Source of the DNA: a virus
DNA length: 64,000 bases
IMG/VR virus record: IMGVR_UViG_3300020438_004021
Coordinates: 32,001-96,000 of that record
Direction: 5' to 3' (one strand)
Shown: piece by piece, positions 876-54,832 of the stretch
Layout: every line of letters begins with the position of its first letter
Position numbering within the stretch: position 1 is the first letter of the stretch
Notes under the pieces: generated by a model
Database searches by the model: none
What the model saw: only the letters and a program-made list of their open reading frames with translations
What the model was told of the DNA's origin: nothing
Position numbers and translations under genes: made by a program

Positions 876-1037
876 ATGGATAAGAACATCGGTTATAGTA
901 AGAAAGAACTAGAAGAGTGGAAGAAGTGGGCTGAAGAGTATGATAGCAGTGCTGGAGAGAAAGGTACTGACGAATTGATTAAGAACTATAAATCAAATAC
1001 ACCGGGTGAAACTGCTGACAATGAGCGTACTGACTGA
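876..1037 (+). CDS. Small hypothetical protein (53 aa)
   Basis: GGAG SD before ATG 876; MDKNIGYSKKELEEWKKW...GTDELIKNYKSNTPGE; fills the gap between gp41 and gp61. Confidence 0.6.
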   Translation: MDKNIGYSKKELEEWKKWAEEYDSSAGEKGTDELIKNYKSNTPGETADNERTD

Positions 1038-2097
1038 CAAAAAATTCATTAATATCATATCTTCAGAGTTGAACAAATTCAAGTGGAAGAAAGACAATCT
1101 CGCCATTTGTAGATGTCCAATTTGTGGAGATTCCAAGAAGAACCCCAATAAATGCAGGGGTTACTTCTATCAGAAACACGGCAGGTACTTCTACAAGTGT
1201 CATAACTGTGGCTATTGGTCGAATATATATAATTTTCTTAAGGAGGTCTCTCCTAGTCTATGCAAGGAGTACTCCTTAGAGAATTTCAAGAATGGTATGA
1301 GCAATACCAAACGAAACAATAGCAAGAAGAATGACAAAAGTAGAGAGGAAAGTATGCTGAACATTAATTTTGGTAGGACTCCCAAAAGACCGAGAGATGG
1401 ATATAAAATCCTCGAAGGGTTGGAATGCCTCAAAGACTTGCCGGAAGAACACGAGGCAGCAAAATTCGCTAACCTCAGGATAATACCTAAGCAACATTGG
1501 AACCTTCTGTATTATACGGAAGACTTCGGTTCTTTGATGAGGAAGTTGGACCCTACTTGCCTTCCTGTGGGCAAAGAGTCGAGATTGGTGATACCGTTCT
1601 TCAACAAGAAGGGAGATGTGGTTGCTGTTCAGGGAAGAGCATTGAATATGAATGCCGAACACAATGCTAGGTCTACTGTTAAGTACATAACCGTTAAGGT
1701 GGATAAAAGCATAGACAGGTTGTGGTATGGTCTATGGAGATGTGACCCCAAGAAGACAGTGTATGTGGTCGAGGGACCGATCGACAGTCTCTTCATTCCT
1801 AACTCCATCGCCATGGTGGGGGCAGGAGCAATCAATAATATGCCTAGCAGATTGGTTGACAGCAATATGGTGTTTGCCCTAGATAATGAACCCAGAAATA
1901 AGCAGATAGTGCAATACAATGAAGAACTGGTCAGACAAGGCAAGAAAGTCTGCGTATGGCCTAAGGGTATAGAAGAAAAAGATATTAATGACATGTCCTA
2001 TAGTATTTCTACCAAGAAAATTAAGAAAATTATGGACGAGAATTCTTTCAGTGGACTTGAAGCAACCGCTAGGTTGAGGGAGTGGAAAAAAGTATGA
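1021..2097 (+). CDS. gp61: T4 gp61-like DNA primase
   Basis: Zn finger CPICGDS...YKCHNC, RLVIPFF, TOPRIM VVEGPIDSLF and DNEPRN. Confidence 0.95.
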   Translation: MSVLTDKKFINIISSELNKFKWKKDNLAICRCPICGDSKKNPNKCRGYFYQKHGRYFYKCHNCGYWSNIYNFLKEVSPSLCKEYSLENFKNGMSNTKRNNSKKNDKSREESMLNINFGRTPKRPRDGYKILEGLECLKDLPEEHEAAKFANLRIIPKQHWNLLYYTEDFGSLMRKLDPTCLPVGKESRLVIPFFNKKGDVVAVQGRALNMNAEHNARSTVKYITVKVDKSIDRLWYGLWRCDPKKTVYVVEGPIDSLFIPNSIAMVGAGAINNMPSRLVDSNMVFALDNEPRNKQIVQYNEELVRQGKKVCVWPKGIEEKDINDMSYSISTKKIKKIMDENSFSGLEATARLREWKKV

Positions 2098-3999: not shown

Positions 4000-5937
4000 A
4001 TGATAGAATTACCAACACCATATCAACAGTTTATCCACCTCTCTAGATACAGTAGATGGTTAGATGAAGAAGGAAGAAGAGAGACTTGGGAGGAAACTGT
4101 TGATAGGTATATCGGTTTCTTTAGAGAACACCTAGAGAAGACTTTAGGTTATAAGATGAGTAAAAATACAGAGAAGACTATGAGAGATTCTATCTTGAAT
4201 CTAGAAGTCATGCCTTCAATGCGTTGTTTGATGACTGCTGGTGAGGCACTTAAGAAAGACGCAGTAGCTGGGTACAATTGTTCATACCTGGCAATCGATA
4301 GGGTGAGAGCATTTGATGAAGTCCTTTATGCCCTCATGTGTGGCACAGGTGTTGGTTTTTCAGTGGAGAGAGAGTATGTATCTAAACTACCCACTATTGC
4401 AGAAGAATTTGAAGAATCAGATTCTACTCTTGTTGTTCAAGATTCTAGAATTGGTTGGTGTAAGGCATATCGGGAGCTTGTATCTCTACTCATTACAGGT
4501 CGTGTACCAAAATGGGACATGTCACGTGTTCGTCCTGCCGGGTCGAGACTTAAGACTTTCGGCGGTAGAAGCTCCGGACCGGAGAGTCTATCTGATTTAT
4601 TTCAATTCACAGTCGAGGTCTTTAAAAAGGCTTCTGGAAGAAAACTTACCACCATTGAATGCCACGATCTCGTATGCAAGATTGCAGAAATTGTTGTAGT
4701 CGGTGGTGTAAGAAGGTCCGCACTCCTCAGTCTTTCCTCCCTGACAGACGAGAGAATGAGAGATGCCAAGCAGGGACAATGGTGGGTGATTGAACCACAA
4801 CGTGCGTTATCCAACAATTCGGTATGCTATAAAGAAAAACCTGAAATCGGGACCTTCATAGAAGAGTGGTTAGCACTATATAAATCGAAGTCTGGTGAAA
4901 GAGGTATCTTCAACAGAGCATCAGCACAAAAGACTGTATCTCAGATACAAGGTGGAAGAAGGGAATCTAACCATGACTTTGGGACGAATCCTTGCTCTGA
5001 AATCATACTTAGAGACAGAGAGTTTTGTAATCTGTCTGAGGTTGTCGCTAGACATGATGATACCATAGAGACTCTTAAGCAGAAGGTAAGGTTAGCATCC
5101 ATTATAGGAACTTGGCAATCGACCCTTACAGACTTCAGATACCTATCAGCAGAATGGAAGAACAATTGTGAGGAAGAAAGACTGCTTGGTGTCTCCATAA
5201 CGGGCATTATGGACTCTGCTCTCTTAAATGGAGATAAGAAGTCGGTATCAGCACTACCTGCTCTTCTGGAAGAACTCAGAGATATCGCTGTTAAGACCAA
5301 TAAAGAGTGGGCATCCAGACTGGGAATTAACCCATCAGCAGCCATCACATGTGTTAAACCGTCTGGTACTGTTTCACAGCTTGTCGATTCTGCCTCTGGT
5401 ATTCATGCTAGACATAACCCTTATTATGTAAGGACCGTCCGTGCCAATACCAAAGACCCTCTATGCAAGTTCATGATAGAAAAGGGGTTCCCACATGAGC
5501 CTTGCCACATGAAGTCTGACACCACTATGGTATTTTCATTCCCAGTAGAGTCTCCCAAAAGAGCAATTTTCAGACAAGATATGTCCGCTATCGAGCAGTT
5601 GGACCTTTGGATGATATATCAGAAGCACTGGTGTGAGCATAAGCCGAGTGTTACTATCTCAGTCCAAGAGGGTGAATGGTTGGACGTTGGTACTTGGGTT
5701 TACAATAACTTCGATGATGTGTGTGGAGTATCTTTCTTGCCATTCAGCGACCACTCATATAAGCAAGCACCCTATCAGGACTGCACCAAAGAAGAGTACA
5801 AGCAGCTCCTTAAGCAGATGCCAAAAGATGTGGACTGGGATGAACTGACTGCATATGAGAAGGAAGACAACACGGCTGGCAGTCAAACACTAGCCTGTTC
5901 TGGCACTTCCTGCGAGGTAGTTGACCTAACCTCATAA
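4000..5937 (+). CDS. nrdJ: Class II (adenosylcobalamin-dependent) ribonucleotide reductase
   Basis: RRETWEETVDRY, GTNPCSEI, FCNLSEV, TCVKPSGT, EHKPSVT, C-terminal ACSGTSCE. Confidence 0.93.
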   Translation: MIELPTPYQQFIHLSRYSRWLDEEGRRETWEETVDRYIGFFREHLEKTLGYKMSKNTEKTMRDSILNLEVMPSMRCLMTAGEALKKDAVAGYNCSYLAIDRVRAFDEVLYALMCGTGVGFSVEREYVSKLPTIAEEFEESDSTLVVQDSRIGWCKAYRELVSLLITGRVPKWDMSRVRPAGSRLKTFGGRSSGPESLSDLFQFTVEVFKKASGRKLTTIECHDLVCKIAEIVVVGGVRRSALLSLSSLTDERMRDAKQGQWWVIEPQRALSNNSVCYKEKPEIGTFIEEWLALYKSKSGERGIFNRASAQKTVSQIQGGRRESNHDFGTNPCSEIILRDREFCNLSEVVARHDDTIETLKQKVRLASIIGTWQSTLTDFRYLSAEWKNNCEEERLLGVSITGIMDSALLNGDKKSVSALPALLEELRDIAVKTNKEWASRLGINPSAAITCVKPSGTVSQLVDSASGIHARHNPYYVRTVRANTKDPLCKFMIEKGFPHEPCHMKSDTTMVFSFPVESPKRAIFRQDMSAIEQLDLWMIYQKHWCEHKPSVTISVQEGEWLDVGTWVYNNFDDVCGVSFLPFSDHSYKQAPYQDCTKEEYKQLLKQMPKDVDWDELTAYEKEDNTAGSQTLACSGTSCEVVDLTS

Positions 5938-11910: not shown

Positions 11911-12891
11911 ATGATGAAAAGACACCAGATTAAAATCGGCAATTCGCTTAGTGTCCTGAAGGAAATGGATGATAAAAGTGTGGACTGTGTTGTAACCTCC
12001 CCACCTTATTGGGGATTGCGTGATTATGGTGGTCAAGAAGAACAACTGGGTGCTGAAGGCACACCGCAAGAATTCGTTGACAATATGGTATCCATCTTTA
12101 GTCAAGTACATAGAGTCCTTAAGGACGAAGGGACTGTCTGGTTGAACCTTGGCGACAGTTATTATAACTACAGACCTGGTGCAGGTCAGACACTAATCAA
12201 GCAGACAATCGCTAACAGCGACCAAGACCTTCCCCAAGAGTGTGCTAGGAGAGGGAACAAGATTAAGGGTCTCAAAGAGAAGAGTCTAGTTGGGATTCCT
12301 TGGAGGGTAGCACTTGCTTTGCAGGAAGATGGATGGATTCTGAGACAGGATATCATCTGGCACAAACCCAATCCGATGCCCGAATCCGTAAAAGACAGAT
12401 GTACCAAGGCACACGAATATATCTTTCTCCTAACCAAGAATAAGAAGTATTACTACGACAATGAAGCAATCCTAGAGCCGATCTCTGAGATATCAATAAA
12501 GAGAGCGGAGTATGGTTGGGATTGCGACAGACCTTCAACCAAGAATGCATCAATGGGAGGCGAGGGTATCCACGTCGAAAAGATGGGGACCAGATTCGTT
12601 AATCCCAAGGGCAAGAACAAACGGTCTGTCTGGACGGTAAACACAGCGAGTTATAAAGATGCTCATTTTGCGGTTTACCCCACCAAACTGATTGAACCTT
12701 GCATCTTAGCAGGATGCCCTGAAGGTGGAACCGTTCTGGACCCATTCTCGGGAAGCGGAACAACGGGTATCGTTGCCCTTAACAACGGACGAAAATACAC
12801 CGGAATCGAGTTGAATCCTGAATACGCAGAACTATCGGAAAAGAGAATAGCAGAAGAATGTCCCAACAACCTAACGGAGCTTATGCAATGA
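11911..12891 (+). CDS. Beta-class N4-cytosine/N6-adenine DNA methyltransferase
   Basis: Motif IV TSPPYW N-terminal, motif I VLDPFSGSGTT C-terminal, HFAVYP. Confidence 0.9.
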   Translation: MMKRHQIKIGNSLSVLKEMDDKSVDCVVTSPPYWGLRDYGGQEEQLGAEGTPQEFVDNMVSIFSQVHRVLKDEGTVWLNLGDSYYNYRPGAGQTLIKQTIANSDQDLPQECARRGNKIKGLKEKSLVGIPWRVALALQEDGWILRQDIIWHKPNPMPESVKDRCTKAHEYIFLLTKNKKYYYDNEAILEPISEISIKRAEYGWDCDRPSTKNASMGGEGIHVEKMGTRFVNPKGKNKRSVWTVNTASYKDAHFAVYPTKLIEPCILAGCPEGGTVLDPFSGSGTTGIVALNNGRKYTGIELNPEYAELSEKRIAEECPNNLTELMQ

Positions 12892-13973
12892 GAACAGCAA
12901 TCACATTTGATGACGTTTTAATCGTCCCACAATACAGCGAAGTGACACCAGACATGGTGTCGACCAAGACCACCTTGGTGAAAGGAATCGAACTGGACAT
13001 CCCAATTATGTCCGCACCGATGGATTCGGTGACAGAGGTCGAAATGGCAACAGCGATGGCTGAAGAAGGTGGTATAGGCATCCTACACAAGAATATGGGT
13101 CATGATGAGCAGATACGTCAGGCCTATGAGATTAAGAAGTGGGGTCATAAGTTGGGTGTTGCTCTTAGCCCAACCAAGTACACCGATAGGATGGTTGAGG
13201 AACTGGTTGATGCCGGTATCGACGTGTTCGTCCTTGACAGTGCACATGGTCATTCTAAGAACGTGATGGATGCAACTGAGCGACTTAAGAAGCTCACCGA
13301 TATCCCTGTCATTGTAGGAAACATCGCAACCGCAGAAGCCGCTATAGAACTCTACAATGCTGGTGCTGATGCCCTAAAGGTGGGTATCGGTCCTGGTTCC
13401 ATTTGTACGACGAGAATCGTAGCGGGTGTGGGTGTCCCCCAAATCACCGCTATTCAGGATGTTGCCAGTGCCAATGGAGGCAAACTCGACATCCCCATCA
13501 TTGCAGACGGTGGTATCCGGTACAGTGGTGATATCGCTAAAGCTATCATGGCAGGTGCGAGTTGCGTGATGCTAGGTTCCCTCCTTGCAGGACATGATGA
13601 AGTCCCCAACTACCAAGGTGTCATCATTGACGGCAAGCGGTATGTCCCTTACCGTGGGATGGGAAGCGAAGGAGCGATGGGTGACGGTTCTGGAGACAGG
13701 TACAGTCAAGACGGCTCAGATAAGTTCGTCCCTGAGGGCATCGAGGGTTGCGTCCCTTATAAGGGTGCAGTTGCAGACACTATCTACCAGATGGTCGGCG
13801 GTCTAAAGTCAGCAATGGGTTATGTCGGTGCTGCAACGATTGAAGACCTGATTAAGCAGGGCGAAAGTTATTATCACATGGAAGGGTTCGTAGGGGTAAG
13901 TCCTAACTCCCTGCGAGAGAACCACCCACACGATGTCCATATCACCAAGGAAGCACCCAACTATGCGATTTGA
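12888..13973 (+). CDS. guaB: IMP dehydrogenase (CBS-less; GuaB/GuaC family)
   Basis: [62 protein letters not shown]. Confidence 0.9.
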
Positions 13974-14967
13974 TAAGATGCCAAAAGCGGAGCTGCACCT
14001 TCATATCGAAGGCACTCTCGAACCCGAGTTGATGTTCGAACTGGCAGACAGGAACGGGATGAAGATTCCCTACAAGACAGTCGAAGAAGTACGAAGTGCT
14101 TATGAATTCGACAGTCTTCAGTCATTTCTAGACATCTACTATGAAGGTGCTAAGGTCCTGAGGACTGAGCAAGACTTCTACGATTTGACTTGGGCATACC
14201 TGATGAAGTGCAAAGAGCAAAGAATCGTGCATACTGAAATCTTTTTTGACCCCCAAACGCACACCCACAGGGGCGTGGATTTTGGGACAGTTATTAACGG
14301 AATCAGCAACGCACTTCTAGACGCAGAAGCAGAATTCGGAATCACTTCTCTCATATTCATGTGCTTTTTGCGACACCTAACCGAGACATCTGCCTTCGAA
14401 ACCCTAGAGATGGCAATGCCTTATCAAAACAAGATTTATGGTGTTGGTCTCGACTCTTCAGAGGTTGGCAATCCGCCCTCTCGATTTAAAAAGGTGTTCG
14501 CAGAAGCGGCTGAACGTGGATTTGAGGTGGTATGCCATGCAGGAGAAGAAGGACCACCTGAGTACATTTGGGAGGCATTAGAACTAGGTGCTTCTAGAAT
14601 CGACCACGGTGTCCGTTGCCTTGAATCCTCCACCATAACAAACGAGCTGGTAGATAGGCAAATTCCTCTTACGGTCTGCCCTCTTTCTAACGTCAAACTC
14701 AAGGTCTTTGACACCCTCAAGGGTCATAATCTCAAGAAGATGATGGACAGAGGTCTTTTCGTTACGATTAACTCAGATGACCCAGCCTATTTTGGTGGTT
14801 ATCTCAACGAGAACTATGAGCAGTGCATGAAGGAGCTTAATCTGAGCGAGAACGATATGACCGTCCTCCTCAGCAATTCTTTCTTAGCATCTTATCTTTC
14901 CCCACTAGAGAAGGGACGATACATTGAGAAGATTGAAAAATGCATGCACATAGAGAAGGCGGTGTAG
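13963..14967 (+). CDS. add: Adenine/adenosine deaminase
   Basis: PKAELHLHIEGTLEP, EIFFDPQTH, HAGEEG, RIDHGVR, CPLSN, NSDDPAYFGGY. Confidence 0.92.
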   Translation: MRFDKMPKAELHLHIEGTLEPELMFELADRNGMKIPYKTVEEVRSAYEFDSLQSFLDIYYEGAKVLRTEQDFYDLTWAYLMKCKEQRIVHTEIFFDPQTHTHRGVDFGTVINGISNALLDAEAEFGITSLIFMCFLRHLTETSAFETLEMAMPYQNKIYGVGLDSSEVGNPPSRFKKVFAEAAERGFEVVCHAGEEGPPEYIWEALELGASRIDHGVRCLESSTITNELVDRQIPLTVCPLSNVKLKVFDTLKGHNLKKMMDRGLFVTINSDDPAYFGGYLNENYEQCMKELNLSENDMTVLLSNSFLASYLSPLEKGRYIEKIEKCMHIEKAV

Positions 14968-26107: not shown

Positions 26108-27070
26108 ATGAAATCATTCAAGCAATTCATATCAGAGACATACAAAGACTCAGGCATTGGTAAATGGATGAGTCAATCAGCAGGTGGTTCACCTGGTTGG
26201 GATAGATATGGTCTAGACGGTAAGAAAATTGGTAAATGTGGTGATGCCAAAGAGGGTGAGGCATATGCTGCCTGCTTGTCTCCTGCCAAGGCTAAGAAGT
26301 TGGGCAAGAAGGGGATAGCATCTTTTGTGAGAAGAAAGAGGGATGCACAGAAGAAGTCAGGTGATTCTGCCAAAGGCGGAGAAGAGAAAAAAGGTCAGAG
26401 TCCGACATATGTAAAGACTGAAGACTGGTCCGAAAAATACAAAAGAAGCATAGACTGTAATAATCCGAAAGGTTTTTCTCAGAAAGCCCATTGTGCCGGT
26501 AGGAAAAAGAAGAAAAACAACGAAGCAGTCAAGACCAGAATCGATACTGATCTAGAAGTGTTGGTGGTGCAAAACAAAGATGGTGAACCTAATACCTACT
26601 CTTCAATGGAGGATGCCAAGAAGACTGCTAAGAAGATTCAGGGCAAAGTTATTAGAGGAGTGGACGGAGAGATTATGGTTCAGGTCTTAATAGACCCCAG
26701 CATCAGAAAGCATTTGGATGAGAACAGCAAAAATCCGGGCAAAGAATATTATGAGAGAATGGCAGATAAGTTGAGAAAGGCTGGATATGACCTGAGGAAG
26801 CCTATTAATAGAAAGAAGGCATGGGATGTCATAGGCAGTATGGCAGTAAGCAGACTAGCCGATAAGGGATATATTGATATCGAAGGTGGTGAGGGTAGGC
26901 AAAAGAGAGAATCTGTTTCTGAGTCTGAGAACGAACCAACAAATCCGTCTCTGTGGAAGAAAGCATTATCTAAGGCTAAATCTAAGTTCGATGTCTATCC
27001 TTCAGCATATGCTAGTGCTTGGGCATCCAAGTGGTATAAAGAACAAGGTGGAGGTTGGAGGAAGAAATGA
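26108..27070 (+). CDS. Modular putative internal head protein
   Basis: MKSFKQFISE; modules WSEKYKRSIDCNNPKGFSQKAHC and PTNPSLW...KFDVYPSAYA...GGGWR. Confidence 0.7.
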   Translation: MKSFKQFISETYKDSGIGKWMSQSAGGSPGWDRYGLDGKKIGKCGDAKEGEAYAACLSPAKAKKLGKKGIASFVRRKRDAQKKSGDSAKGGEEKKGQSPTYVKTEDWSEKYKRSIDCNNPKGFSQKAHCAGRKKKKNNEAVKTRIDTDLEVLVVQNKDGEPNTYSSMEDAKKTAKKIQGKVIRGVDGEIMVQVLIDPSIRKHLDENSKNPGKEYYERMADKLRKAGYDLRKPINRKKAWDVIGSMAVSRLADKGYIDIEGGEGRQKRESVSESENEPTNPSLWKKALSKAKSKFDVYPSAYASAWASKWYKEQGGGWRKK

Positions 27071-45857: not shown

Positions 45858-46069
45858 GTTTTGATTACCAAGTTGGAGACAAAGCAGTTGACAAGCAGTC
45901 CATGAGAATGGGTACAATCATTGATTTGGTTGAAGAGTTTAATGAATCTGGCGAAAGCACATATAACGCCGCCAAGATTGATTTTGGAGACGGTACTACA
46001 GAATGGGTGAATGGTGAAAATATGACCAAACTGCTTCTAGAAGATTGTACGGATGCCCCCTCGTCATAA
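45854..46069 (+). CDS. Small SH3-like hypothetical protein
   Basis: YQVGDKAVD...GTII...KIDFGDGTTEWV. Confidence 0.6.
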   Translation: MSFDYQVGDKAVDKQSMRMGTIIDLVEEFNESGESTYNAAKIDFGDGTTEWVNGENMTKLLLEDCTDAPSS

Positions 46070-46105
46070 ATAAGGTAGATAAGAACCTCGAAAAAGGAGG
46101 TCACG

Positions 46106-46324
46106 ATGCCTAACGAGAGGAAAAAGAAGAAAGTCTGGACAGAACCAGAGGACAAATCGCAGTGGTTACTAGATTTGATTGATGCCGGAGAATCGGTGGT
46201 AGTTGGATATGAGAAATACTTGATGAATAAACTTGACTACAACCAGCTGGCACAACTCATGCTTCAACTGCGTGAGCTGCTTCCGATGTCCCTTGAGGAC
46301 AAAATGGAAAAAGACCCAGAGTGA
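46106..46324 (+). CDS. Hypothetical protein
   Basis: AAGGAGG SD. Confidence 0.65.
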   Translation: MPNERKKKKVWTEPEDKSQWLLDLIDAGESVVVGYEKYLMNKLDYNQLAQLMLQLRELLPMSLEDKMEKDPE

Positions 46325-46338
46325 ACTTCGTAATGCAT

Positions 46339-46411
46339 GGGAGTGTAGCTCAGTCGGTAGAGCATCGGTCTTTTAAACCGGTGGTCGTGGGTTCGAGTCC
46401 CACCGCTCCCA
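46339..46411 (+). tRNA. tRNA-Lys(TTT)
   Basis: GGGAGTG/CGCTCCC acceptor, TCGGT-CTTTTAA-ACCGG, GTGGG-TTCGAGT-CCCAC. Confidence 0.93.
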
Positions 46412-46432
46412 CTTGGGATTGACAATGAATAC

Positions 46433-46461
46433 TTGACAGGATAAATAACCTGTGATCTAAT
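46433..46461 (+). promoter_or_regulatory. Sigma70-type early promoter
   Basis: TTGACA-17 nt-TCTAAT with TG extension. Confidence 0.75.
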
Positions 46462-46552
46462 GGAATTTGTGAAAGCATCAATAGGACCTAACCCGATGGG
46501 GTATGAGATGCGTGAATGTGAAATCGTCGGGAATTTTAAGGAGAATGTCATT

Positions 46553-46825
46553 ATGATGACAAAGATCTCAAAGCGTCGTAAGGTTATGAACTTCCTCAGC
46601 AACTCTGACAAGGGACTAACCGAGAGCGAAGCCCGCTCAATGTTTGGTGTCAATGCACTGCCTTCAGTGATCAGCAGCATCAAGAAGCAGGTCGAATGCA
46701 ATGGTAATTGGGAAATCGTCAAGGAGCGTACGCCTCGTAACAAGGTTCGCTATTTCATGAACGATACCCACCCAGGCACTCGCTCCTACGGTTTCAACCG
46801 TGACGGCAGTCGCTACGCTATCTGA
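46553..46825 (+). CDS. Putative winged-HTH DNA-binding protein
   Basis: AAGGAG SD; SKRRKVMNFL...LTESEARSMFGV..LPSVISSIK; CGT-rich codon usage. Confidence 0.6.
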   Translation: MMTKISKRRKVMNFLSNSDKGLTESEARSMFGVNALPSVISSIKKQVECNGNWEIVKERTPRNKVRYFMNDTHPGTRSYGFNRDGSRYAI

Positions 46826-46941
46826 TTCCTAACGGAATCGCCCCCTACAATTCAAGTCTTTTGATGGGTTCACTCCCATTGAAAGACATTCTTGACAAGT
46901 GAATAGAATATAAGTGCATTGGGATTAATTACCTCGATGCC

Positions 46942-47117
46942 GGACGGTGACAGAATATTTTTCGTTACTGAAGATAATGTATGCAATTCCTCGTGGTAAG
47001 GTGCGAATGCTCAAATGAGTGAAGTAGTCTTTGACCAAGACAGTTGCAGTGCGAGTAGGAAATAACCAAACTAGGTAACTCCGAAAGTTGTGGGTATAGT
47101 TGAGTCCCATCCGTCCA
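46942..47117 (+). ncRNA. Candidate ~175-nt multi-branched structured RNA
   Basis: Ends pair (GGACGG/CCGTCC); inner TGCAATT/AGTTGCA stem enclosing hairpins; terminal GTGGG/CCCAT stem. Confidence 0.5.
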
Positions 47118-47125
47118 TGAATAAC

Positions 47126-47208
47126 GTCTCAGAAGAGGTGGTTCGAGTCCACCCATTAGGGCTGCAGTCAGACCCTGTAGTGTATGTCAGAGTTCAGCAC
47201 GCTGAGAC
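47126..47208 (+). ncRNA. Circularly permuted tRNA-like RNA (YrlA-like T-AS-D order)
   Basis: GTCTCAG/CTGAGAC stem enclosing T-arm GGTGG-TTCGAGT-CCACC, closed acceptor-like hairpin, TA, D-arm GTGT...GCAC, G. Confidence 0.6.
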
Positions 47209-47386
47209 AGGATTTTCCGAGGTTGTGTGGGGTGGAGCAGGGTGGTTGACTTTCTAGTTTGACAGCTCCCCCACACAACCTTTTAATCTACCGTTCTAAA
47301 GGAGACCTGCTATGGAGACCTAGGATTTTATTAATAAGATAGGATTTTAATATTATAGCACGTCAATTGACAGACTCAAAACAGCA

Positions 47387-47434
47387 ACCGAACGAAGTTA
47401 ACTGGTCTTCCTATCGTTCGGTATTAAAGACCAG
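47387..47434 (+). ncRNA. H-type pseudoknot
   Basis: Stem 1 ACCGAACGA/TCGTTCGGT (9 bp); stem 2 CTGGTCTT/AAGACCAG (8 bp). Confidence 0.6.
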
Positions 47435-47441
47435 CGTTCTG

Positions 47442-47467
47442 ACCCCGTACGATAACGGGGTTTTTTC
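47442..47467 (+). terminator. Intrinsic terminator
   Basis: ACCCCGT-ACGATA-ACGGGGT followed by T-run. Confidence 0.8.
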
Positions 47468-47469
47468 AT

Positions 47470-47555
47470 ATACCCCCTCCTGATATCTAGAAAACGCTAT
47501 ATCCCCTCCTGATATCGAGAAGGTACTTGACAGGAGGTCAAAGCCATGATCTAAT
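47470..47555 (+). promoter_or_regulatory. Two GATATC-centred motif A copies plus early promoter
   Basis: CCCCCTCCTGATATC and CCCCTCCTGATATCGAGAAGG directly before TTGACA(47527)-17 nt-TCTAAT(47550). Confidence 0.8.
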
Positions 47556-47578
47556 GGGTGGAGTAAAAGGAGATATGG

Positions 47579-47770
47579 ATGGCAAAACGAGTATGGGACA
47601 GATTTGACGAAGAAGCCGAGAGAGAAGGAGCCGCCTTCACCAAGCAGGTAGTCACCCAAATTATAAAAGGTGGGGGTCGTGAAGGCAAGAAAATCCGAAA
47701 GCAGAGAAGCGGCATCCAAGCTGCTCTTAACCGTTCTGAAATGCGTATTATGAGGAAATATCTAGTATGA
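47579..47770 (+). CDS. Small basic hypothetical protein
   Basis: AAGGAG SD downstream of an early promoter. Confidence 0.65.
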   Translation: MAKRVWDRFDEEAEREGAAFTKQVVTQIIKGGGREGKKIRKQRSGIQAALNRSEMRIMRKYLV

Positions 47771-47982
47771 GTAAGTCTTGCCTAGACTGTGGAACCAATA
47801 TTCCAGAAGCACGTTTGAGTGCAGTACCCGACACAGACTACTGCGTGGGTTGTGTCGACAAGAATTCAAAGCCGGTTGTAGCCAGGTTGATTTTCAATCA
47901 CAAGACAGCTGGTGAAGTATTCATCGCCAAGGGAAAAGAGAATGTGAGAATCCTAGAGAGGGAGTACTCAAGGGGCAGGTAA
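47767..47982 (+). CDS. DksA/TraR C4 zinc-finger protein
   Basis: CLDCGTNIPEARLSAVPDTDYCVGC. Confidence 0.8.
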   Translation: MSKSCLDCGTNIPEARLSAVPDTDYCVGCVDKNSKPVVARLIFNHKTAGEVFIAKGKENVRILEREYSRGR

Positions 47983-48014
47983 TATTCTTATAAATAATTT
48001 CAGAGGGACTCCCA

Positions 48015-48278
48015 ATGAAGATTGTGAAAGTGACATGGATAGATGCTGAAGAATATGGTGAAATTGGTTGGAATTCTCTTAAATCGATGAAAACCTATGC
48101 CAAGAAGCCATGCCCCACTATGACTAGTGTTGGGCATGTTCTGTATGAAGACGATAATCACATATCACTAATCAGTACCGTTGGTGAAAAAGAGTCCAGC
48201 AGTGTAGACAAAATTCCCAAGAGTTTCATTAATAAGATAGAAGAACTTACTGAAAAGGTGAATGAAAAAGATGCCTAG
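48015..48278 (+). CDS. Hypothetical phage protein
   Basis: VKVTWIDA...SVGHV...IPKSFI pattern; TATAAATA at 47989-47996. Confidence 0.7.
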   Translation: MKIVKVTWIDAEEYGEIGWNSLKSMKTYAKKPCPTMTSVGHVLYEDDNHISLISTVGEKESSSVDKIPKSFINKIEELTEKVNEKDA

Positions 48279-48564
48279 TTATGAATACGCCTGCAAAGAA
48301 TGTAAAGAAGTTTGGGAAGAAGTCAGAAAAATATCTGATTGTATGATACCCACTAACAAGAAGTGCCCACACTGTGGTGCTAAAAGAGGCAGCATCTACC
48401 GTCACTTCAGTTCTGCACCATCAATGAAGATGGATGCCAATATGGATTTAACAAAACCACACAACCATGGTGGATTCCAAGATGCGATGAGGAGAGTCGC
48501 GAATGCACCTGGTGTTAAAGGTACAAAATATGCGGACAAAATCAATGAAAAGCATATTAGTTGA
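48271..48564 (+). CDS. FmdB-family zinc-ribbon protein
   Basis: MPSYEYACKEC...CPHCG. Confidence 0.8.
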   Translation: MPSYEYACKECKEVWEEVRKISDCMIPTNKKCPHCGAKRGSIYRHFSSAPSMKMDANMDLTKPHNHGGFQDAMRRVANAPGVKGTKYADKINEKHIS

Positions 48565-48635
48565 CAATATCATCAGCAACCGATAAATACAAGTACACAA
48601 CCAACCAAAACGTTTTATTATGAAGGAGTTTCGTT

Positions 48636-49709
48636 ATGATTGAGTCTGGTAAGGTGAATTTTCTTATTGATGGACAGTGGGGAAGCACTGGCAAGGGCAA
48701 ACTTGCCGGTTACATGTATAGCAGATTTAAGAATCTGAACATGGCAATCAGTGATAATATGCCAAATGCGGGGCATACCTTTACACGCGATGGTAAGAAC
48801 TTCATCTTTAAGGCCCTTCCTACCGGAGTTTTGTTCGATGAAGTGACATCTTTAATCGGTCCACAGGCAGTGATGGGTGAAGAGCAGTTCCAATATGAAA
48901 TGGAGATGGTGAAGAACGAAATAGGTCACTATCCCAAGGTAATCATCCACCCAATGGCAACCGTTGTAACCGCCAGTGACAAAGATGCTGAAGCAGGAAT
49001 CGTCAGCAAAATGGCAAGTACGGGTCAGGGTTCTTGTTCCGCTACCGTTAAGAAGATGTGGAGACGAGGAGAGGCAAACCTCGCCAAGAACAGCAAGGTG
49101 TTTGATGAATTCGTCGGTGATACCCATTCCTTCCTTCATGAAGGACTTAAGAAGGGTGGTGCTGCACTTTCGGAAGGTAGTCAAGGTTTTGACCTTTCAA
49201 TGAATTGCGGACATGCCTACCCACACACGACGTCACGCGATTGCTTGATCGGGAGAATGATGGACAATGCAGGATGCCCAGTCAAGTCTGTAGGTAGCAT
49301 AATCGCTTGTCTAAGGACACTGCCAATTCGCGTTGGAAGCACTGAGAACACGAGCGGTCCTTACTACGACGACCAGAATGAAATCGACTGGAAGACGGTA
49401 TCCGATATGTGTGGTCATGATGTAGAAGAAAGAACTACAGTGACCCAGAGAGTTCGTAGAGTATTTACATTCTCGGAAGAACAGACTAGGAAGTTCTGCG
49501 AATTTGTTCGTCCGGATTATGCATTCCTTAACTTCGTTAACTACTATAAGGAAGAGGGAGACCGACTCAATGCTGTCTCTGAAGTAGCGACAATTCTGGG
49601 TGAGTACGGTTGCGACCTTACACTACTAGGTACTGGTGCTGGACTAGACGATATGGAAATGACCAGCAACGAGCAAATCCTAGGCAAGCAGGAAACACTT
49701 TTTGCATGA
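48636..49709 (+). CDS. purZ: PurZ-type 2-amino-deoxyadenylosuccinate synthetase (PurA family)
   Basis: GQWGSTGKG (Ser replaces PurA Asp), NAGHT, EGSQGFDLS, YPHTTSRDC, RTLPIRV, SGPYYDDQNEIDW, ERTTVTQRVRRVFTFS, FLNFVNY; 357 aa. Confidence 0.82.
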   Translation: MIESGKVNFLIDGQWGSTGKGKLAGYMYSRFKNLNMAISDNMPNAGHTFTRDGKNFIFKALPTGVLFDEVTSLIGPQAVMGEEQFQYEMEMVKNEIGHYPKVIIHPMATVVTASDKDAEAGIVSKMASTGQGSCSATVKKMWRRGEANLAKNSKVFDEFVGDTHSFLHEGLKKGGAALSEGSQGFDLSMNCGHAYPHTTSRDCLIGRMMDNAGCPVKSVGSIIACLRTLPIRVGSTENTSGPYYDDQNEIDWKTVSDMCGHDVEERTTVTQRVRRVFTFSEEQTRKFCEFVRPDYAFLNFVNYYKEEGDRLNAVSEVATILGEYGCDLTLLGTGAGLDDMEMTSNEQILGKQETLFA

Positions 49710-50260
49710 TTCAGCACTGCGTAATAGGACAGGCTGGTAGTGGTAAGTCCACATTCATAGAGAAGAAATTCCCTAGGGACGAACACATCTTCTTTGATAC
49801 GGGTAGCATGCTTAGAAGCATGTTTACCTGTCTCAAGGGGGAACAGACTAGCAAGAACGTTTGGGATTTTGCAAATCCGTTGGTATATAGTGTTTACAAG
49901 CAGTGCTGCACTGTTTCAGAGAACACCGGTTATGAGTTCATAACTGACGGTTTCCCTAGGAACTCATCTCAAGTTAAGAATATGCATATGTTTTTGACTT
50001 CTCTACCCCATAGCAATTCTATCATATTCCATATGCTGGACATTTCAGAAGAAGAGCAGATTAGGAGGATAGAGAAGAGAAATGGAAAGATGAGCGACTA
50101 TCATATTGATAGGATATCACAGTCTAGGAGAGACTTCGAGTCTGTATTGGATGAACTAGACAGGATTATGAGTAGCAGCACTGCGAACAGAACCTTAATA
50201 GAGATAAAGTGGTATAAGCAAGAAGATGGTGATTTCGTTCTGGACAGAAGTTATAAATAG
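49706..50260 (+). CDS. Adenylate-kinase-like NMP kinase
   Basis: GQAGSGKST, DTGSMLR, ITDGFPRNSSQ; ATGA overlap with the purZ stop. Confidence 0.82.
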   Translation: MIQHCVIGQAGSGKSTFIEKKFPRDEHIFFDTGSMLRSMFTCLKGEQTSKNVWDFANPLVYSVYKQCCTVSENTGYEFITDGFPRNSSQVKNMHMFLTSLPHSNSIIFHMLDISEEEQIRRIEKRNGKMSDYHIDRISQSRRDFESVLDELDRIMSSSTANRTLIEIKWYKQEDGDFVLDRSYK

Positions 50261-50275
50261 TCAGGAGATTTACCT

Positions 50276-50827
50276 ATGGCATCATTCAACTATGAAATTC
50301 CAGACGAATACTTAGAAAATGCATCCGACTTCGGGTTTACTACGGTAGACTCCGATGCTGTAGAACAACAAGAAAGAGATGTAGCCGAAGAAGTAGCGGG
50401 TGAAATATCATCAAATCTTATTGGTCAGATTAGCACCAAGATTAGCGGTCTAGAAGGAAAAATCAATTCTGTCCTTCTTAAAATGCAAGATGAAACAGAT
50501 GAAGACAATGTAGCAGGTGAAATAAATCTGGTTAGGATAGAAGAGAAGATAGATAAGATTCTTGCTATGGAAAATGAAGAACTTGCCAGTAGCATACAAG
50601 CACAAGGTGAGAGCATCCGTGCAGTCATAGATGAAGTAGAAGAGAGAAAAAGCACACTAGAAGACCAATACCTAGATAAAATGAAGGAAATTGAAAAACT
50701 GGTCTTACCTCTATTGGTTAATCTGACCAAGAATCCAGAAAGAGAGTACCTCTTCTGGCCTGATAGGTCTGAAAAAGTCAATAAGCAGATAGGAAAAGTC
50801 CTTTCTATTACAAGAAATGCCGAATAA
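50276..50827 (+). CDS. Acidic coiled-coil hypothetical protein
   Basis: DFGFTTVD...PLLVNLTKNPEREYLFWPDR T4-like pattern; TATAAATA at 50252-50259. Confidence 0.75.
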   Translation: MASFNYEIPDEYLENASDFGFTTVDSDAVEQQERDVAEEVAGEISSNLIGQISTKISGLEGKINSVLLKMQDETDEDNVAGEINLVRIEEKIDKILAMENEELASSIQAQGESIRAVIDEVEERKSTLEDQYLDKMKEIEKLVLPLLVNLTKNPEREYLFWPDRSEKVNKQIGKVLSITRNAE

Positions 50828-51497
50828 AAAATTCACCCATCTATCCAATAAGATAACCGAGGATATAGATGCCGTCACCAACAAGGACGGTTCTAGATTC
50901 TACCAAGCACCCAATGGTGAGAAATACCCCAGTGTCACCACAGTCACTGGTTGGGAGAAGAAGGCTTTCTTCGCTGAATGGAGGAGGAAGAACCCCAAGG
51001 AATCTAAAAGGGTTCTGTCCGTAGGAACCAGTATGCACCAGGTAGTAGAAGATTTCTTAGATAATAAAGAAACCTACCTCGATGGTGCATCTCAATCTGC
51101 CATTAATCTTTTTCAGTACATGAAGCCTGTCCTGATAGAGAAGATAGATAATATCAAAGCACAAGAAGTCGCCCTATGGAGTAGTTTATTGGGGTTGGCA
51201 GGAAGGGTGGATTGTGTTGCTGAATATGATGGTAAGTTGTCCATCATAGATTTTAAGAGCAGCAGAAGAGAGAAGAAAGAAGAATATATAGGCAACTACT
51301 TCGCTCAGGCTACCGCATATGCCATAATGTGGAAAGAGTTAACTGGTGAGCAAATAGACCAGATAGTTATACTGATATCTTGTGAAGATGGTAGTGTCCA
51401 GCAATTCATAGATAAACCAGTAAATCACGTAAAAACGCTCAAAGAGATGATAGACAAGTACTATCAGAGTCAGGCACTATCGGAGTATTTAGGTTAA
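50817..51497 (+). CDS. PD-(D/E)xK exonuclease (T4-like)
   Basis: YPSVTTV, GTSMH, LAGRVDC...IIDFKSS, YFAQATAYA. Confidence 0.88.
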   Translation: MPNKKFTHLSNKITEDIDAVTNKDGSRFYQAPNGEKYPSVTTVTGWEKKAFFAEWRRKNPKESKRVLSVGTSMHQVVEDFLDNKETYLDGASQSAINLFQYMKPVLIEKIDNIKAQEVALWSSLLGLAGRVDCVAEYDGKLSIIDFKSSRREKKEEYIGNYFAQATAYAIMWKELTGEQIDQIVILISCEDGSVQQFIDKPVNHVKTLKEMIDKYYQSQALSEYLG

Positions 51498-52714
51498 GAC
51501 CTAGGGACGGTTCTCTTAAAAGTGACATCGATACACGGTCTAAAGTCTACACGACTATCATTCACCGAATATATCTCCATCATGTGTCTCCAATGGGTGT
51601 AATACCCATCTAGAGAACCTTGACCATCTACATGCTCGGTATTGGTATCATCGTTGCCAATGAACACCATTCTCAGATCTCCCGTTCTGCTATCTATGCA
51701 ATCCTGAACGAGAGAAGTAACATCCACCTTGACCTCAGGGACCGCAGGTATCGTTCCTAGAGAACCTGCGATTCTCACCCTAGCACCACCTACTGATGGT
51801 TTTATCCCTATCATGGCTCCGGTTGTGATTCCACCACCAGTATCTAATGTAACACCCGTTTCATCACCAGTTCGTCCTGCATCGTCGTCAGGACCTATAG
51901 TAACCCCATTGCTGGTATCGTCGTCAGGTTGGTCTGGGAGTTCGTTTCCATCCCCAAATGGTTTCACACCTAACCAACAATGTCCCAATGGGCTGGCATT
52001 CGTTATGTCGGCTGAATTGGTAGCACCAGAAGAATCTCCACCGCTTGAACCCCAATAGGCATCAGCAGTTGGAGCACCTTTGAAATGATACCAACCCATA
52101 GTATCCATAGAACCAGCAGTCCACCCATTGCTAGCGCCTTGAACGTTAGCATTCCTAGTACCTCTATAAATGCAATATATTCTGTCTGCTATTGCATAAG
52201 TAGCACCACCATCATAGAAGGGTACGTGGTGACCCCATACTTTATGGATTTTAAGACTTAATGTAGCACTAACGATGGTATCTCCACCTGTCAGTCCATA
52301 AGTTCCACCACCACCAGGATCTGTTGGGTCGTTTGGATTACCTGGTGGACCCCAGTCGCTGACATTGGTGTACCAAAAAATTCTAGCAGCTGGAGTTGCT
52401 AATTCATAAGCATCACCGAATTCTTGTTCTCCCCACATATCTTTGGTCATATAATATCTGGCAGCCGCTCCCAGTTGGAGAATGGCATCAGAACTAGCAC
52501 CCAATGCTGTCCTATGTAGGTGGAAATCGTTGAAGTAAGTCTGAGATGTGGGTCCAGTAGCACCATCAATTATTTGTATATCTCGAACATAGGTGTCTTC
52601 GTTAGGGTAAAGTCTCACCTTAGCGGTTACTTCAGTCCCACCGTCACCACCATCATCTGGTTTGTTGACTTCAGCCTGTCTTCTTTTAGTTAATCTGTGC
52701 CTTGCTCGACTCAT
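51494..52714 (-). CDS. Hypothetical Gly/Asp/Thr-rich virion or carbohydrate-binding-like protein
   Basis: EDTYV...IVSATLSL...DVTSLVQD...RPCIDVTF resembles DNRLRE-type domains. Confidence 0.55.
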   Translation of the reverse strand: MSRARHRLTKRRQAEVNKPDDGGDGGTEVTAKVRLYPNEDTYVRDIQIIDGATGPTSQTYFNDFHLHRTALGASSDAILQLGAAARYYMTKDMWGEQEFGDAYELATPAARIFWYTNVSDWGPPGNPNDPTDPGGGGTYGLTGGDTIVSATLSLKIHKVWGHHVPFYDGGATYAIADRIYCIYRGTRNANVQGASNGWTAGSMDTMGWYHFKGAPTADAYWGSSGGDSSGATNSADITNASPLGHCWLGVKPFGDGNELPDQPDDDTSNGVTIGPDDDAGRTGDETGVTLDTGGGITTGAMIGIKPSVGGARVRIAGSLGTIPAVPEVKVDVTSLVQDCIDSRTGDLRMVFIGNDDTNTEHVDGQGSLDGYYTHWRHMMEIYSVNDSRVDFRPCIDVTFKRTVPRS

Positions 52715-52739
52715 ATTTCACATACCTCATGGGTTATTA

Positions 52740-53537
52740 TCATGTACCAACTATTCTAATGTCCGCAGTGCCGGTCCCTGTGCAGGTTGCTCTAATTCCG
52801 TTAGAGTTGGATGCCTCGATAAAGAGACTATCAAATGCTTGTAGAGCATACCCATTATTGGCACTAGTGATTCCGGTGTCGAATGTACACCCAATGAATG
52901 CAGTAGCAGGACCGAAGTTAGTGATTCTGAATCCTGTGGCAAATGTCCTTGCGGGCAATGTTTGCTGTGCCACTGCTGTAGAACCTGTTGATTTCTGTGC
53001 GAAAAGGAAACCGGTAGTGAAACCGGTGCTGTTACTTGGGTGTGTAGAAGGTATTGCTACTGTAAGAACGTCAACGTCACCGATATTATTAGTACTGGCG
53101 GCTAGTTTAACATCACCAGTGATCTGGGCAGTGATTCCTAGCAGTCCACTTGATGCCACGGAGATGGTAGCACCATCTGCAAACCCTTTAACAGTGCTGA
53201 CAAAATCTAGAGTACCACCCACCACCTTGTCGAGAGTGCCACCACCAATAGTCACATTCGATACATCGAACGATGCACCACCAGTAATTAGGACTTGTAC
53301 GGGGAGTGTACCTGAGGTGTTACCCGCTACTGGTATGGAACCAAATCCGGCTGCATTGGTATGCATGATTGGGACAGGGGCTGCATTGGTCATCAAGGAG
53401 TCAACGCCATCGCCTCCGGTGTTGATCTTAATTTCTTGAAAATGCCCTACATTATCCCCACCATAGTCAGTCGCCAAGGTTGCTCCGACAGGACTTGTCG
53501 ATGTAATTTGAATATTATCAGATGTTAGTTGTGCCAT
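52740..53537 (-). CDS. Putative virion structural/fibre protein
   Basis: Gly/Thr/Ala-rich beta content; TNNIGDVDVL. Confidence 0.6.
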   Translation of the reverse strand: MAQLTSDNIQITSTSPVGATLATDYGGDNVGHFQEIKINTGGDGVDSLMTNAAPVPIMHTNAAGFGSIPVAGNTSGTLPVQVLITGGASFDVSNVTIGGGTLDKVVGGTLDFVSTVKGFADGATISVASSGLLGITAQITGDVKLAASTNNIGDVDVLTVAIPSTHPSNSTGFTTGFLFAQKSTGSTAVAQQTLPARTFATGFRITNFGPATAFIGCTFDTGITSANNGYALQAFDSLFIEASNSNGIRATCTGTGTADIRIVGT

Positions 53538-53629
53538 TATCAGTACTCTCCAGATTTATATAAGTGTTGACAGGTATTACCCACTAATTATATATAAGAT
53601 GAAAGCAGTGGACGAAAAAGGGGCTTATC

Positions 53630-53851
53630 TTGATTGAGGATGGTATTGATTTTTGTAAGGACGTTGAAAAACTGATTTTGAACGACACCTTTGACAATTA
53701 TATTGATGCTGTCCTGCATCTTTGTGATGATAAAGGGATTGAGCCGTTCGTCGCAGCCAGGATGCTAAGCAAACCGATAAAAGAGAAAATAAAAAAGGAG
53801 GGGCAGGAGATAAATCTGCTCCCCAGAAAAACACGGCTACCAATAAAATAA
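53630..53851 (+). CDS. gp33: T4 gp33-like late transcription coactivator
   Basis: YIDAVLHLC...LSKPIKEKIKKEG..INLLP...LPI; lies before gp32. Confidence 0.8.
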   Translation: MIEDGIDFCKDVEKLILNDTFDNYIDAVLHLCDDKGIEPFVAARMLSKPIKEKIKKEGQEINLLPRKTRLPIK

Positions 53852-53855
53852 TATA

Positions 53856-53884
53856 TTGACAAGAGAATACCCATGTGGTATAAT
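53856..53884 (+). promoter_or_regulatory. Sigma70-type promoter for gp32
   Basis: TTGACA-17 nt-TATAAT with TG extension. Confidence 0.85.
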
Positions 53885-53929
53885 GGAATTTGAAACGAAA
53901 CGCAGTAATACAATACAAGGAGAAATATT

Positions 53930-54832
53930 ATGAGTTTCAGTAGTATGAAAAAGTCTTCGGGAGACAACACGAAGCTGTTGGATGAATTGAGTAAGATTTC
54001 ATCTGGAGACAAGGCAAGTTATAAAGACGATAGATTCTGGAAGCCTGAACGAGACAAGTCCGATAACGGGTTTGCCGTAATTCGGTTCCTTCCTCCAGTA
54101 GAAGGTGAGGATTCACCTTGGGTTCGAATGTTCTCACATGGATTTAAGGGTCGAGGTGGTTGGTACATCGAGAATTGCCCAACTACAATCGGTCGCAAGT
54201 GTCCTTTGTGTGAGGCAAACAGCGAACTATGGAACAGTGGACTTGAGACCGATAAGGATGTAGCAAGAAACCGCAAGCGAAGACTTAACTACATCTCAAA
54301 TATTCTGGTGGTAAGTGACCCCAAGAATCCAGACAACGAAGGTAAGGTCTTCCTCTACAAGTTCGGCAAGAAGATTTTTGATAAGATTATGGAATCTCTT
54401 CAACCAGAATTTCAAGATGAAGAGGCGATTAACCCATTCGACTTCTGGAAGGGTGCTAACTTCAAGTTGAAGGTCCGTAAGGTAGCAGGATTCATCAACT
54501 ATGATAAGAGCGAATTTGACATTCAGTCTGAGATGTTCGATGGTGATGATGGGAAGCTGGAAGAATTGTGGAAGAGTCAGTACCCTCTTCAACCACTAGT
54601 AGCACCCGACCAGTTCAAGAGTTATGATGAACTGAAGGCACGTCTGATGCAGGTACTTGGTGGTGGTAACTCTAATATCGCTACCTCTGCTGATGAGGTC
54701 ACCAACGAAGATGTAAAGAAGGTCGCCGAAGAGCAGTTTGGTACTAATAAAGAAGAGACTGTTTCTTCTAGTGAACCAAAAGAAGAGACCGATGCACTAG
54801 CATACTTTGAGAAACTAGCACAAGAGGATTGA
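53930..54832 (+). CDS. gp32: T4 gp32-like single-stranded DNA-binding protein
   Basis: DDRFWK, AVIRFLP, WYIENCPTT, FGKKIFDKI, FDFWKGANFKLK, NYDKSEF, acidic tail. Confidence 0.95.
   Translation: MSFSSMKKSSGDNTKLLDELSKISSGDKASYKDDRFWKPERDKSDNGFAVIRFLPPVEGEDSPWVRMFSHGFKGRGGWYIENCPTTIGRKCPLCEANSELWNSGLETDKDVARNRKRRLNYISNILVVSDPKNPDNEGKVFLYKFGKKIFDKIMESLQPEFQDEEAINPFDFWKGANFKLKVRKVAGFINYDKSEFDIQSEMFDGDDGKLEELWKSQYPLQPLVAPDQFKSYDELKARLMQVLGGGNSNIATSADEVTNEDVKKVAEEQFGTNKEETVSSSEPKEETDALAYFEKLAQED

Follow-up and report, generated by a model that had tools for sequence, protein, structure and literature searches.

A purZ-type gene coupled to a candidate dZMP kinase gene in a marine T4-like phage suggests a second architecture for 2-aminoadenine DNA

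Introduction

DNA in which 2-aminoadenine (Z) stands in for adenine (A) is presented in the cited literature as a feature of small sipho- and podoviruses, which borrow the PurB and the kinases of their hosts and clear dATP by DatZ/MazZ or by DutZ/DmtZ. The phages concerned are described as Siphoviridae and Podoviridae (PMC8599892), the PurB step is assigned to the host (introduction of PMC12884076) or PurB is called bacterial (PMC12783734), and one report mentions a kinase once, as the host GMP kinase (bioRxiv 10.1101/2025.10.22.683976). Here, a 64,000-nucleotide stretch of viral DNA (the window) is described, which comprises bases 32001–96000 of the 136,240-bp IMG/VR record IMGVR_UViG_3300020438_004021 (G000). 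It was found to encode a PurZ-type succino-amino-deoxyadenylate synthase and, overlapping its stop codon, a nucleoside monophosphate (NMP) kinase of the adenylate kinase (Adk) fold. On sequence grounds, the pairing of purZ with a coupled kinase suggests a second, undescribed way in which phages build Z-DNA. A literature search covering main texts returned no description of a purZ-kinase module or of T4-like PurZ phages, and the word "kinase" is absent from the main text of PMC12884076.

The classical Z-cluster, as found in phages phiVC8, S-2L and SH-Ab 15497, consists of PurZ together with DatZ, MazZ/DUF550 and usually DpoZ. The signature residues of its synthase (S14, T262, F295 and Y298) are common to the PurZ of the window, and the presumed chemistry, from dGMP through N6-succino-2-amino-dAMP (dSMP) to dZMP, is the same. 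However, the window phage is without DatZ, MazZ, DUF550 and PolA, has its own PurB and NMP kinase for steps which the literature assigns to the host, and is of T4 type with a family-B polymerase and a genome of about 136 kb, compared with about 40–48 kb for the classical phages.

Arthrobacter phage Wayne and Gordonia phage Ghobes have PurZ0 systems, in which PurZ0 is combined with DutZ, DmtZ, DUF5664 and DpoZ-1 (PMC12884076). In common with the window phage and its group, these systems have a dUTPase-family gene in addition to the synthetase, and the Wayne arrangement PolA - purZ0 - gp51 - ... - NDT-Dut resembles the order PolA - purZ - X - dut-like seen in many kinase-type loci outside the T4-like phages. 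However, Wayne gp51 bears no similarity to the Adk-fold kinase which occupies position X, Wayne PurZ0 carries an LTMLD motif where the window enzyme has the ATP-type FLNFxNY, and Wayne PurZ0 branches outside the group holding the window protein. The NDT/DmtZ of these systems was not found in G000 with Pfam models.

The canonical PurA-PurB-Adk branch matches the trio of the window phage in its three protein families and in the order of their steps, but the window enzyme retains neither the catalytic Asp13 nor the GTP motif of PurA, and the best score of the kinase against the NCBIfam adk models (38.6 bits) lies far below their cut-off of 168. The hydroxymethyl-dC pathway of T4 employs the dCMP hydroxymethylase gp42, the deoxynucleoside monophosphate (dNMP) kinase gp1 and the dCTPase gp56. 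Its logic would be alike, in that a dNMP is altered and the phage supplies its own kinase and its own pyrophosphatase to remove the canonical triphosphate, although the base there is not a purine, the enzymes are unrelated and the exclusion enzyme of the window phage (an atypical Dut) is only a candidate.

The purZ-type gene and its product

The 357-aa product of the purZ-type gene (Table 1) starts MIESGKVNFLIDGQWGSTGKGK and is, as judged from family models, active-site residues and trees, of the PurZ type rather than PurA or PurZ0, which bears out an earlier interpretation made from the letters of the window alone (the sequence-only reading). The PurZ model NF038379 was the top NCBIfam model with 211.7 bits, compared with 137 bits for the best PurA model (archaeal type), and matches to Pfam Adenylsucc_synt (94.8 bits) and PHROG 1211 were also obtained. 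In the PDB the best matches were the phiVC8 PurZ chains (E 6.8e-55, residues 6–343), followed at lower rank by S-2L PurZ (2.3e-29), Pyrococcus PurA (8e-24) and the "PurA-like" chain 7vf6 (3.5e-20), with E. coli PurA matching at about 4e-13 over the N-terminal ~95 residues only. The identity to phiVC8-type PurZ is 37–39%.

The motif G16-S17-T18-G19-K20-G21 is present as previously proposed, standing where PurA has GDEGKG. Its S17 aligns with S14 of phiVC8, S23 of S-2L and the catalytic Asp (D14) of Salmonella PurA. At phiVC8 positions 12/14/262/295/298 the protein has W/S/T/F/Y (W15, S17, T267, F300 and Y303), compared with W/D/G/K/V in Salmonella PurA and F/S/T/M/Q in Wayne PurZ0. The donor site is of the ATP type, F300 and Y303 lying within FLNFVNY, to which CLTKLDV corresponds in PurA and VLTMLDQ in Wayne PurZ0. 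The replacement of the PurA TKLD motif had been recognized earlier, but FLNF was set against it one column out: FLNFVNY aligns with CLTKLDV, placing N299, F300 and N302 at T331, K332 and D334 of Salmonella PurA.

When the 26-position pocket list of S-2L PurZ (taken from PMC8342488) was applied, 20 of the 26 positions were identical to S-2L or phiVC8. Identities in the dGMP pocket comprise T267-T268-V269-T270 (the TTVT loop), R232, V233, R274, N299, F300 and G334. The Val equivalent to V233 is said to clash with the ribose 2'-OH, and S-2L PurZ is reported to be able to take dATP as donor (PMC8342488). F295 and Y298 of phiVC8 have been assigned to the adenine ring of ATP, and the substitution S14D is reported to abolish PurZ selectivity (bioRxiv 10.1101/2025.10.22.683976). 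Asp13 is given as present in 99% of the PurA group and Ser in 147/147 phage PurZ (PMC12884076). A preference of PurZ0 for GTP is stated in the introduction of bioRxiv 10.1101/2025.10.22.683976, whereas PMC12884076 words the ATP/GTP preference the opposite way.

A profile-free search of the product against 1.84 billion representatives yielded 3216 matches at E≤0.001, 326 of them at E≤1e-30. Of the best 150 matches, 145 were aligned (five outside 300–480 aa being dropped); Ser occupies the Asp13 position in 145/145 of these metagenomic representatives and in 7/7 clade members aligned, and the F..Y donor motif is present in most of the 145. Trees were computed with FastTree (160 rows) and with IQ-TREE under LG+C20 (45 rows), Salmonella PurA serving as outgroup. 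Both trees hold one PurA and one PurZ0, the join of which was flagged as long branches meeting. Wayne PurZ0 branches first and all remaining sequences form one group (support 97 in FastTree and 96 in IQ-TREE), so that the window protein groups with PurZ. The window clade lies within a sub-clade of 21 rows (FastTree) or 16 rows (IQ-TREE), with support 99 in each case, which is separate from the sub-clade of the PurZ references (33 rows, support 99, and 9 rows, support 97, respectively). The window protein is therefore a divergent PurZ and no close copy of a studied one.

The coupled kinase

At the junction of the two genes (TTTGCATGATTCAG) the TGA of purZ (49707–49709) overlaps the ATG of the following gene (49706–49708) as ATGA. 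The sequence-only reading had taken this next gene to encode an Adk-like P-loop protein bearing DGFPR, which was upheld both by the letters and by a Pfam ADK match (33.1 bits, cut-off 26.8). The P-loop reads GQAGSGKST, and the NMP-site motif GxxLR is present in addition to DGFPR. When the family profile was compared with the PDB, Aquifex adenylate kinase was the best match (E 8.7e-10), followed by UMP/CMP kinases. The AlphaFold2 model of the protein (predicted local distance difference test score 90.2, predicted template modelling score 0.86) had short AK1-type adenylate kinases as its top Foldseek matches, with template modelling scores of about 0.6.

In 13 kinase homologues G8, G13, K14, G33, D81, P84, R85 and Q89 were found to be invariant, and R37 nearly so. 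Q89 lies four residues after DGFPR, at the position which we take to be that of the Gln with which adenylate kinase reads the 6-amino purine. A Gln of this type would be compatible with dZMP and with (d)AMP alike.

Linkage of purZ and the kinase gene across phages

In 10 of 11 close T4-like relatives the kinase gene immediately follows purZ (PurZ 66–92% identical in the 11, kinase 45–55% identical in the 10), and the contig of the 11th ends inside purZ; the pairing is therefore not due to chance. When, reciprocally, an alignment of 13 kinases was used to query IMG/VR, purZ was immediately upstream in 19/19 kinase loci. A scan of metagenomes with the kinase alignment gave at least two confirmed loci among the matches listed (591 pattern matches), again with purZ upstream in both.

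The best 80 of 341 IMG/VR purZ loci were scanned with profiles. The kinase without DatZ/MazZ/DUF550 was found in 44 loci and DatZ/MazZ/DUF550 without the kinase in 27, a ratio which is no census as the 80 loci are biased to the sub-family of the window. Seven loci had neither, two of these being without sequence downstream of purZ and one having only 855 nt there, while the two loci with both rest on weak 21-bit matches upstream of purZ. The kinase is thus a strict partner of purZ over many phage lineages and almost mutually exclusive with DatZ/MazZ. In both respects the sequence-only reading, which had rightly paired the kinase with PurZ, understated the case, as it did for the phage's own PurB (see below). 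Loci outside the T4-like clade usually have the arrangement PolA - purZ - kinase - dUTPase-like. A dut-like ORF (open reading frame) adjoins the kinase in 22 of the surveyed loci, and a fused kinase-dUTPase ORF, matching both profiles, follows purZ directly in two (L105 and L107, 11121–12122 in each).

Among 50,697 GenBank phage records, no blastn match to the 1.6-kb purZ-kinase stretch was found and no tblastn match to either the window kinase or the kinase of a PolA-type locus (L059); the closest PurZ in these records is 39% identical.

The cultured Flavobacterium phage MaF61 (PQ858689.1; 168 kb) encodes a 447-aa "putative adenosuccinate synthetase" (L038, 7986–9329) which bears the PurZ signature (the Ser, the T262 equivalent and the F/Y donor site) and whose loop following IRxx contains a large insertion. 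Neither of the two kinase queries matched MaF61 (tblastn). purZ homologues were also observed on contigs of jumbo-phage size, of which L056 (262,650 bp) has the kinase after purZ and L096 (254,135 bp) has neither kinase nor DatZ/MazZ.

Genome and T4-like character of the phage

CheckV gave a completeness of 75% for G000. However, G000 is circularly permuted with respect to its relatives G001 (136,012 bp) and G002 (126,210 bp), and since the genes at the ends of G000 are adjacent inside G001, and vice versa, G000 is probably complete. Judged by its gene content, the phage is a T4-like myovirus with a T4-type replisome. The gp41/gp61/gp32 set previously proposed was recovered as a gp41-type DnaB_C helicase and matches to phrog_47 and phrog_224 (Table 1). 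The genome also encodes a gp45 clamp, gp44 loader, RNase H, a UvsX/RecA-like protein, a gp46/47-like Rad50/Mre11 pair and ThyX, as well as a family-B polymerase which shares about 50% identity with cyanomyovirus gp43, and baseplate PHROGs were found.

Table 1. Features of the purZ-kinase locus and of the window genome. Positions are those of the window unless marked G000.
Feature	Position	Strand	Basis and remarks
AAGGAG ribosome-binding site	48624..48629	+	read from sequence; 6 nt before purZ ATG
purZ-type succino-amino-deoxyadenylate synthase	48636..49709	+	357 aa; predicted from family models, residues and trees
Adk-fold NMP kinase, candidate dZMP kinase	49706..50260	+	184 aa; start overlaps purZ stop
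gp32 single-strand DNA-binding protein	53930..54832	+	phrog_224, 381.6 bits; syntenic with purZ-kinase in related loci
gp61-like primase	1021..2097	+	phrog_47, 257.2 bits
Class II (B12) ribonucleoside-triphosphate reductase	4000..5937	+	RTPR 318.3 bits, cut-off 340; Pfam RNR domains
IMP dehydrogenase (IMP to XMP), catalytic domain lacking the CBS insert	12858..13973	+	Pfam IMPDH 420 bits
Adenosine-deaminase-family enzyme (6-aminopurine to 6-oxopurine)	13933..14967	+	NCBIfam NF006850 525 bits, cut-off 419
PurB adenylosuccinate lyase	G000 2188-3642		outside window, some 28-30 kb before its start; TIGR00928 331.5 bits, cut-off 326.2
Atypical dUTPase-family gene	G000 26323-26916		outside window; adjoins polymerase gene

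Other genes of purine metabolism

In G000, G001 and G002 alike, the PurB gene is flanked by the gp47-like and the gp46-like gene, and its product is 47% identical among these relatives, compared with 61–73% for the products of neighboring genes. The IMP dehydrogenase (IMPDH) ORF scored 392.9 bits with the NCBIfam IMP dehydrogenase model, compared with 184 for GMP reductase, and has counterparts in G001 (98% identity) and G002 (58%). The adenosine-deaminase-family gene is present in G001 (66%) and absent from G002. One base after it begins a 127-aa ORF (14969–15352, GTG start) containing HSE...PCCLC (HxE/PCxxC), to which no Pfam or PHROG family was matched.

The dUTPase-family proteins of G000, G001 and G002 are atypical in that motif 1 is followed by about 45 inserted aa and motifs 3 and 5 read DYFHEIK and GGLGSTG, compared with DYRGEVK and GGFGSTG in the two best-matching solved dUTPases. 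As hydrolysis of dATP and dGTP has been shown for the Dut-like enzymes of PurZ0 phages (PMC12884076), this Dut is, by analogy, a candidate dATP/dGTP pyrophosphatase.

Proposed route to Z-DNA

It is rather probable that the phage has a self-contained route from dGMP through dSMP and dZMP to dZDP, run by PurZ, the phage PurB and the coupled kinase, with Z replacing some or all A. This proposal is built on family membership, active-site residues, gene linkage and genome content, from which we infer every substrate, the acceptor of the kinase, the roles of Dut, the adenosine deaminase and IMPDH, and the presence of Z in the virion. The dGMP would derive from host DNA breakdown or from dGTP. PurZ would combine it with aspartate, with ATP or dATP as donor, to give dSMP, which the phage PurB would turn into dZMP. 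The coupled Adk-fold kinase would then raise dZMP to dZDP, the nucleoside diphosphate kinase of the host is assumed to complete dZTP, and the family-B polymerase gp43 would put dZTP opposite T, giving phage DNA with Z for some or all A. The job of the absent DatZ and MazZ/DUF550 is probably done differently. Candidate means of dATP exclusion are the atypical Dut, PurZ itself if it draws on dATP as donor, and a funnel formed by the adenosine deaminase and IMPDH, a pair which would shift adenine compounds towards guanine nucleotides.

A fuller version can be put forward only tentatively and with less than even confidence. It would have an abundant marine T4-like lineage replacing A by Z completely in a ~136-kb genome with a family-B polymerase, by means of PurZ, a phage PurB and a dedicated dZMP kinase, possibly with dATP as donor and hence depletion of A, and with Dut and the deaminase/IMPDH pair in the place of DatZ/MazZ. 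The purZ-kinase(-dut) core would mark a large family of uncultured phages and equal the classical cluster in frequency among purZ loci. If true, Z genomes would reach T4-like myoviruses with family-B polymerases, and there would be a second widespread architecture of the Z pathway, centred on a dedicated kinase. Z-DNA may then be far commoner in marine viromes than cultured phages suggest, and the production of Z-DNA in cells would gain new parts in the form of the kinase, the PurB of the phage and the variant dUTPase.

Several observations weigh against the proposed route. The score of the purZ product remains below the curated cut-off of NF038379 (300 bits), six of the 26 S-2L pocket positions differ (W15, A127, H197, T198, T236 and A335), and in both trees the window clade falls outside the sub-clade of the four PurZ references (phiVC8, S-2L, PMBT28 and Acinetobacter phage Bhz20). 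PurA, PurB and Adk form the textbook route from IMP to ADP, and the kinase keeps the Gln which presumably reads adenine, AMP or dAMP being a possible acceptor. A search of the rest of the genome for datZ and mazZ, suggested with the sequence-only reading, found neither gene in the probably complete G000, and DpoZ-type PolA was likewise not found. Pfam models detected no HD, HD_3, YfbR-like, MazG, DUF550, NDT or DNA_pol_A domain in G000, the DUF550 negative being weak because the control for this model matched no control genome. Profiles made from the 27 classical Z-cluster loci found no DatZ, MazZ, DUF550 or PolA in G000–G003.

The trio could be the ordinary adenine branch, PurA-PurB-Adk (IMP to AMP to ADP), which a phage with canonical DNA would carry as auxiliary metabolic genes. 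These are textbook steps, other purine genes (IMPDH and adenosine deaminase) are present in the same genome, and the nearest solved relatives of the kinase are adenylate kinases. Nevertheless, this is the weakest rival and a very improbable one, since PurZ-type residues occupy the catalytic and donor sites: Ser has taken the place of the catalytic Asp in the window protein, in every clade member and in every representative aligned, the GTP-specificity motif has given way to the ATP motif of PurZ, and T267 and V233 match PurZ. Moreover, both trees place the window protein with PurZ and far from PurA, and the recovered kinase homologues occur only ever beside purZ. Quite improbable, too, is that dZ nucleotides are made without replacing A genome-wide, through partial substitution or some other use such as interference with host enzymes or defences. 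The lack of a detected dATP triphosphohydrolase and of a Z-selective PolA in a probably complete genome would fit such a role, and in a metaGPA study 3/17 adenylosuccinate-synthetase proteins from contigs called unmodified fell outside the PurA group; however, 28/29 such proteins from dZ-enriched contigs grouped with known PurZs in the same study (bioRxiv 10.1101/2025.10.22.683976). The investment of the phage in PurZ, PurB and the kinase, all kept in G000, G001 and G002, likewise speaks against this rival.

A different role for the kinase beside a genuine PurZ, with Z nucleotides being made, is unlikely. The kinase might then handle adenine deoxynucleotides, for instance by draining dATP/dADP through the reverse reaction, or might be a broad dNMP kinase like T4 gp1. 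Its near mutual exclusion with the dATP/dGTP-clearing DatZ/MazZ/DUF550 (44 versus 27 loci, with two weak overlaps) fits a replacement of these enzymes, and its invariant Gln89 is at the position presumed to read adenine in adenylate kinase. A dUTPase-family ORF often comes next after the kinase and in two loci is fused with it, and such enzymes hydrolyse dATP/dGTP in PurZ0 phages (PMC12884076). Host kinases are also described as enough for dZMP in the known phages (PMC12884076; bioRxiv 10.1101/2025.10.22.683976). However, the start-stop overlap and the strict co-occurrence with purZ are explained no less well by a consecutive step of the pathway. Gln89 fails to separate a dZMP kinase from an adenine handler, since Z itself is a 6-aminopurine.

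Occurrence and expression signals

Near-identical DNA was found in 14 DNA-type runs, of which seven are possible sources and seven others come from five viral-metagenome studies. In one non-source run, contigs cover 46000–49355, 49450–50475 and 50481–53923 of the window with zero differences. The presence of near-identical DNA in these runs indicates that the phage is real and recurrent in marine and estuarine viromes.

Contigs of the RNA libraries X15 and X16, both of one sample, hold identical pieces at 48319–48483, 48520–48719 and 48721–48900, the last of these inside purZ. These pieces are no proof of transcription, since DNA can occur in such libraries. Three short pieces were obtained from RNA run X19, none of them in purZ or the kinase gene. 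No RNA-library contig covered the kinase gene, which is no evidence of absence. A scan of 47500–51600 for promoters and terminators was at background (9 promoter-like sites compared with 8.2 expected, and 1 terminator-like site compared with 3.1). About 50 nt upstream of purZ, GATAAATA (48582–48589) resembles what we take to be the T4/cyanophage late-promoter core, TATAAATA.

Additional genes of the phage

A DNA methyltransferase of the N6_N4 type with a TSPPY motif is encoded at window positions 11911–12891. It is absent from G001 and G002 and is probably accessory. The nearest NCBIfam names are adenine methylases, all far below cut-off, and TSPPY is presumably typical of N4-cytosine enzymes. 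Given the scores below cut-off, this motif and the absence from G001 and G002, the gene was counted neither for nor against Z.

A cluster of sugar-nucleotide and glycosyltransferase genes at about 13.4–25.7 kb of G000, outside the window, is common to G002 and mostly absent from G001. It comprises Polysacc_synt_2, HAD, NTP transferase, GT10, DegT aminotransferase, epimerase, methyltransferase and GT2 genes. Within the window, a glutamine-synthetase-like protein (Gln-synt_C, 66.5 bits) is encoded at 2094–3179 between the primase and ThyX genes, and a 675-aa protein with RimK-type ATP-grasp and Zn_protease domains at 29513–31540.

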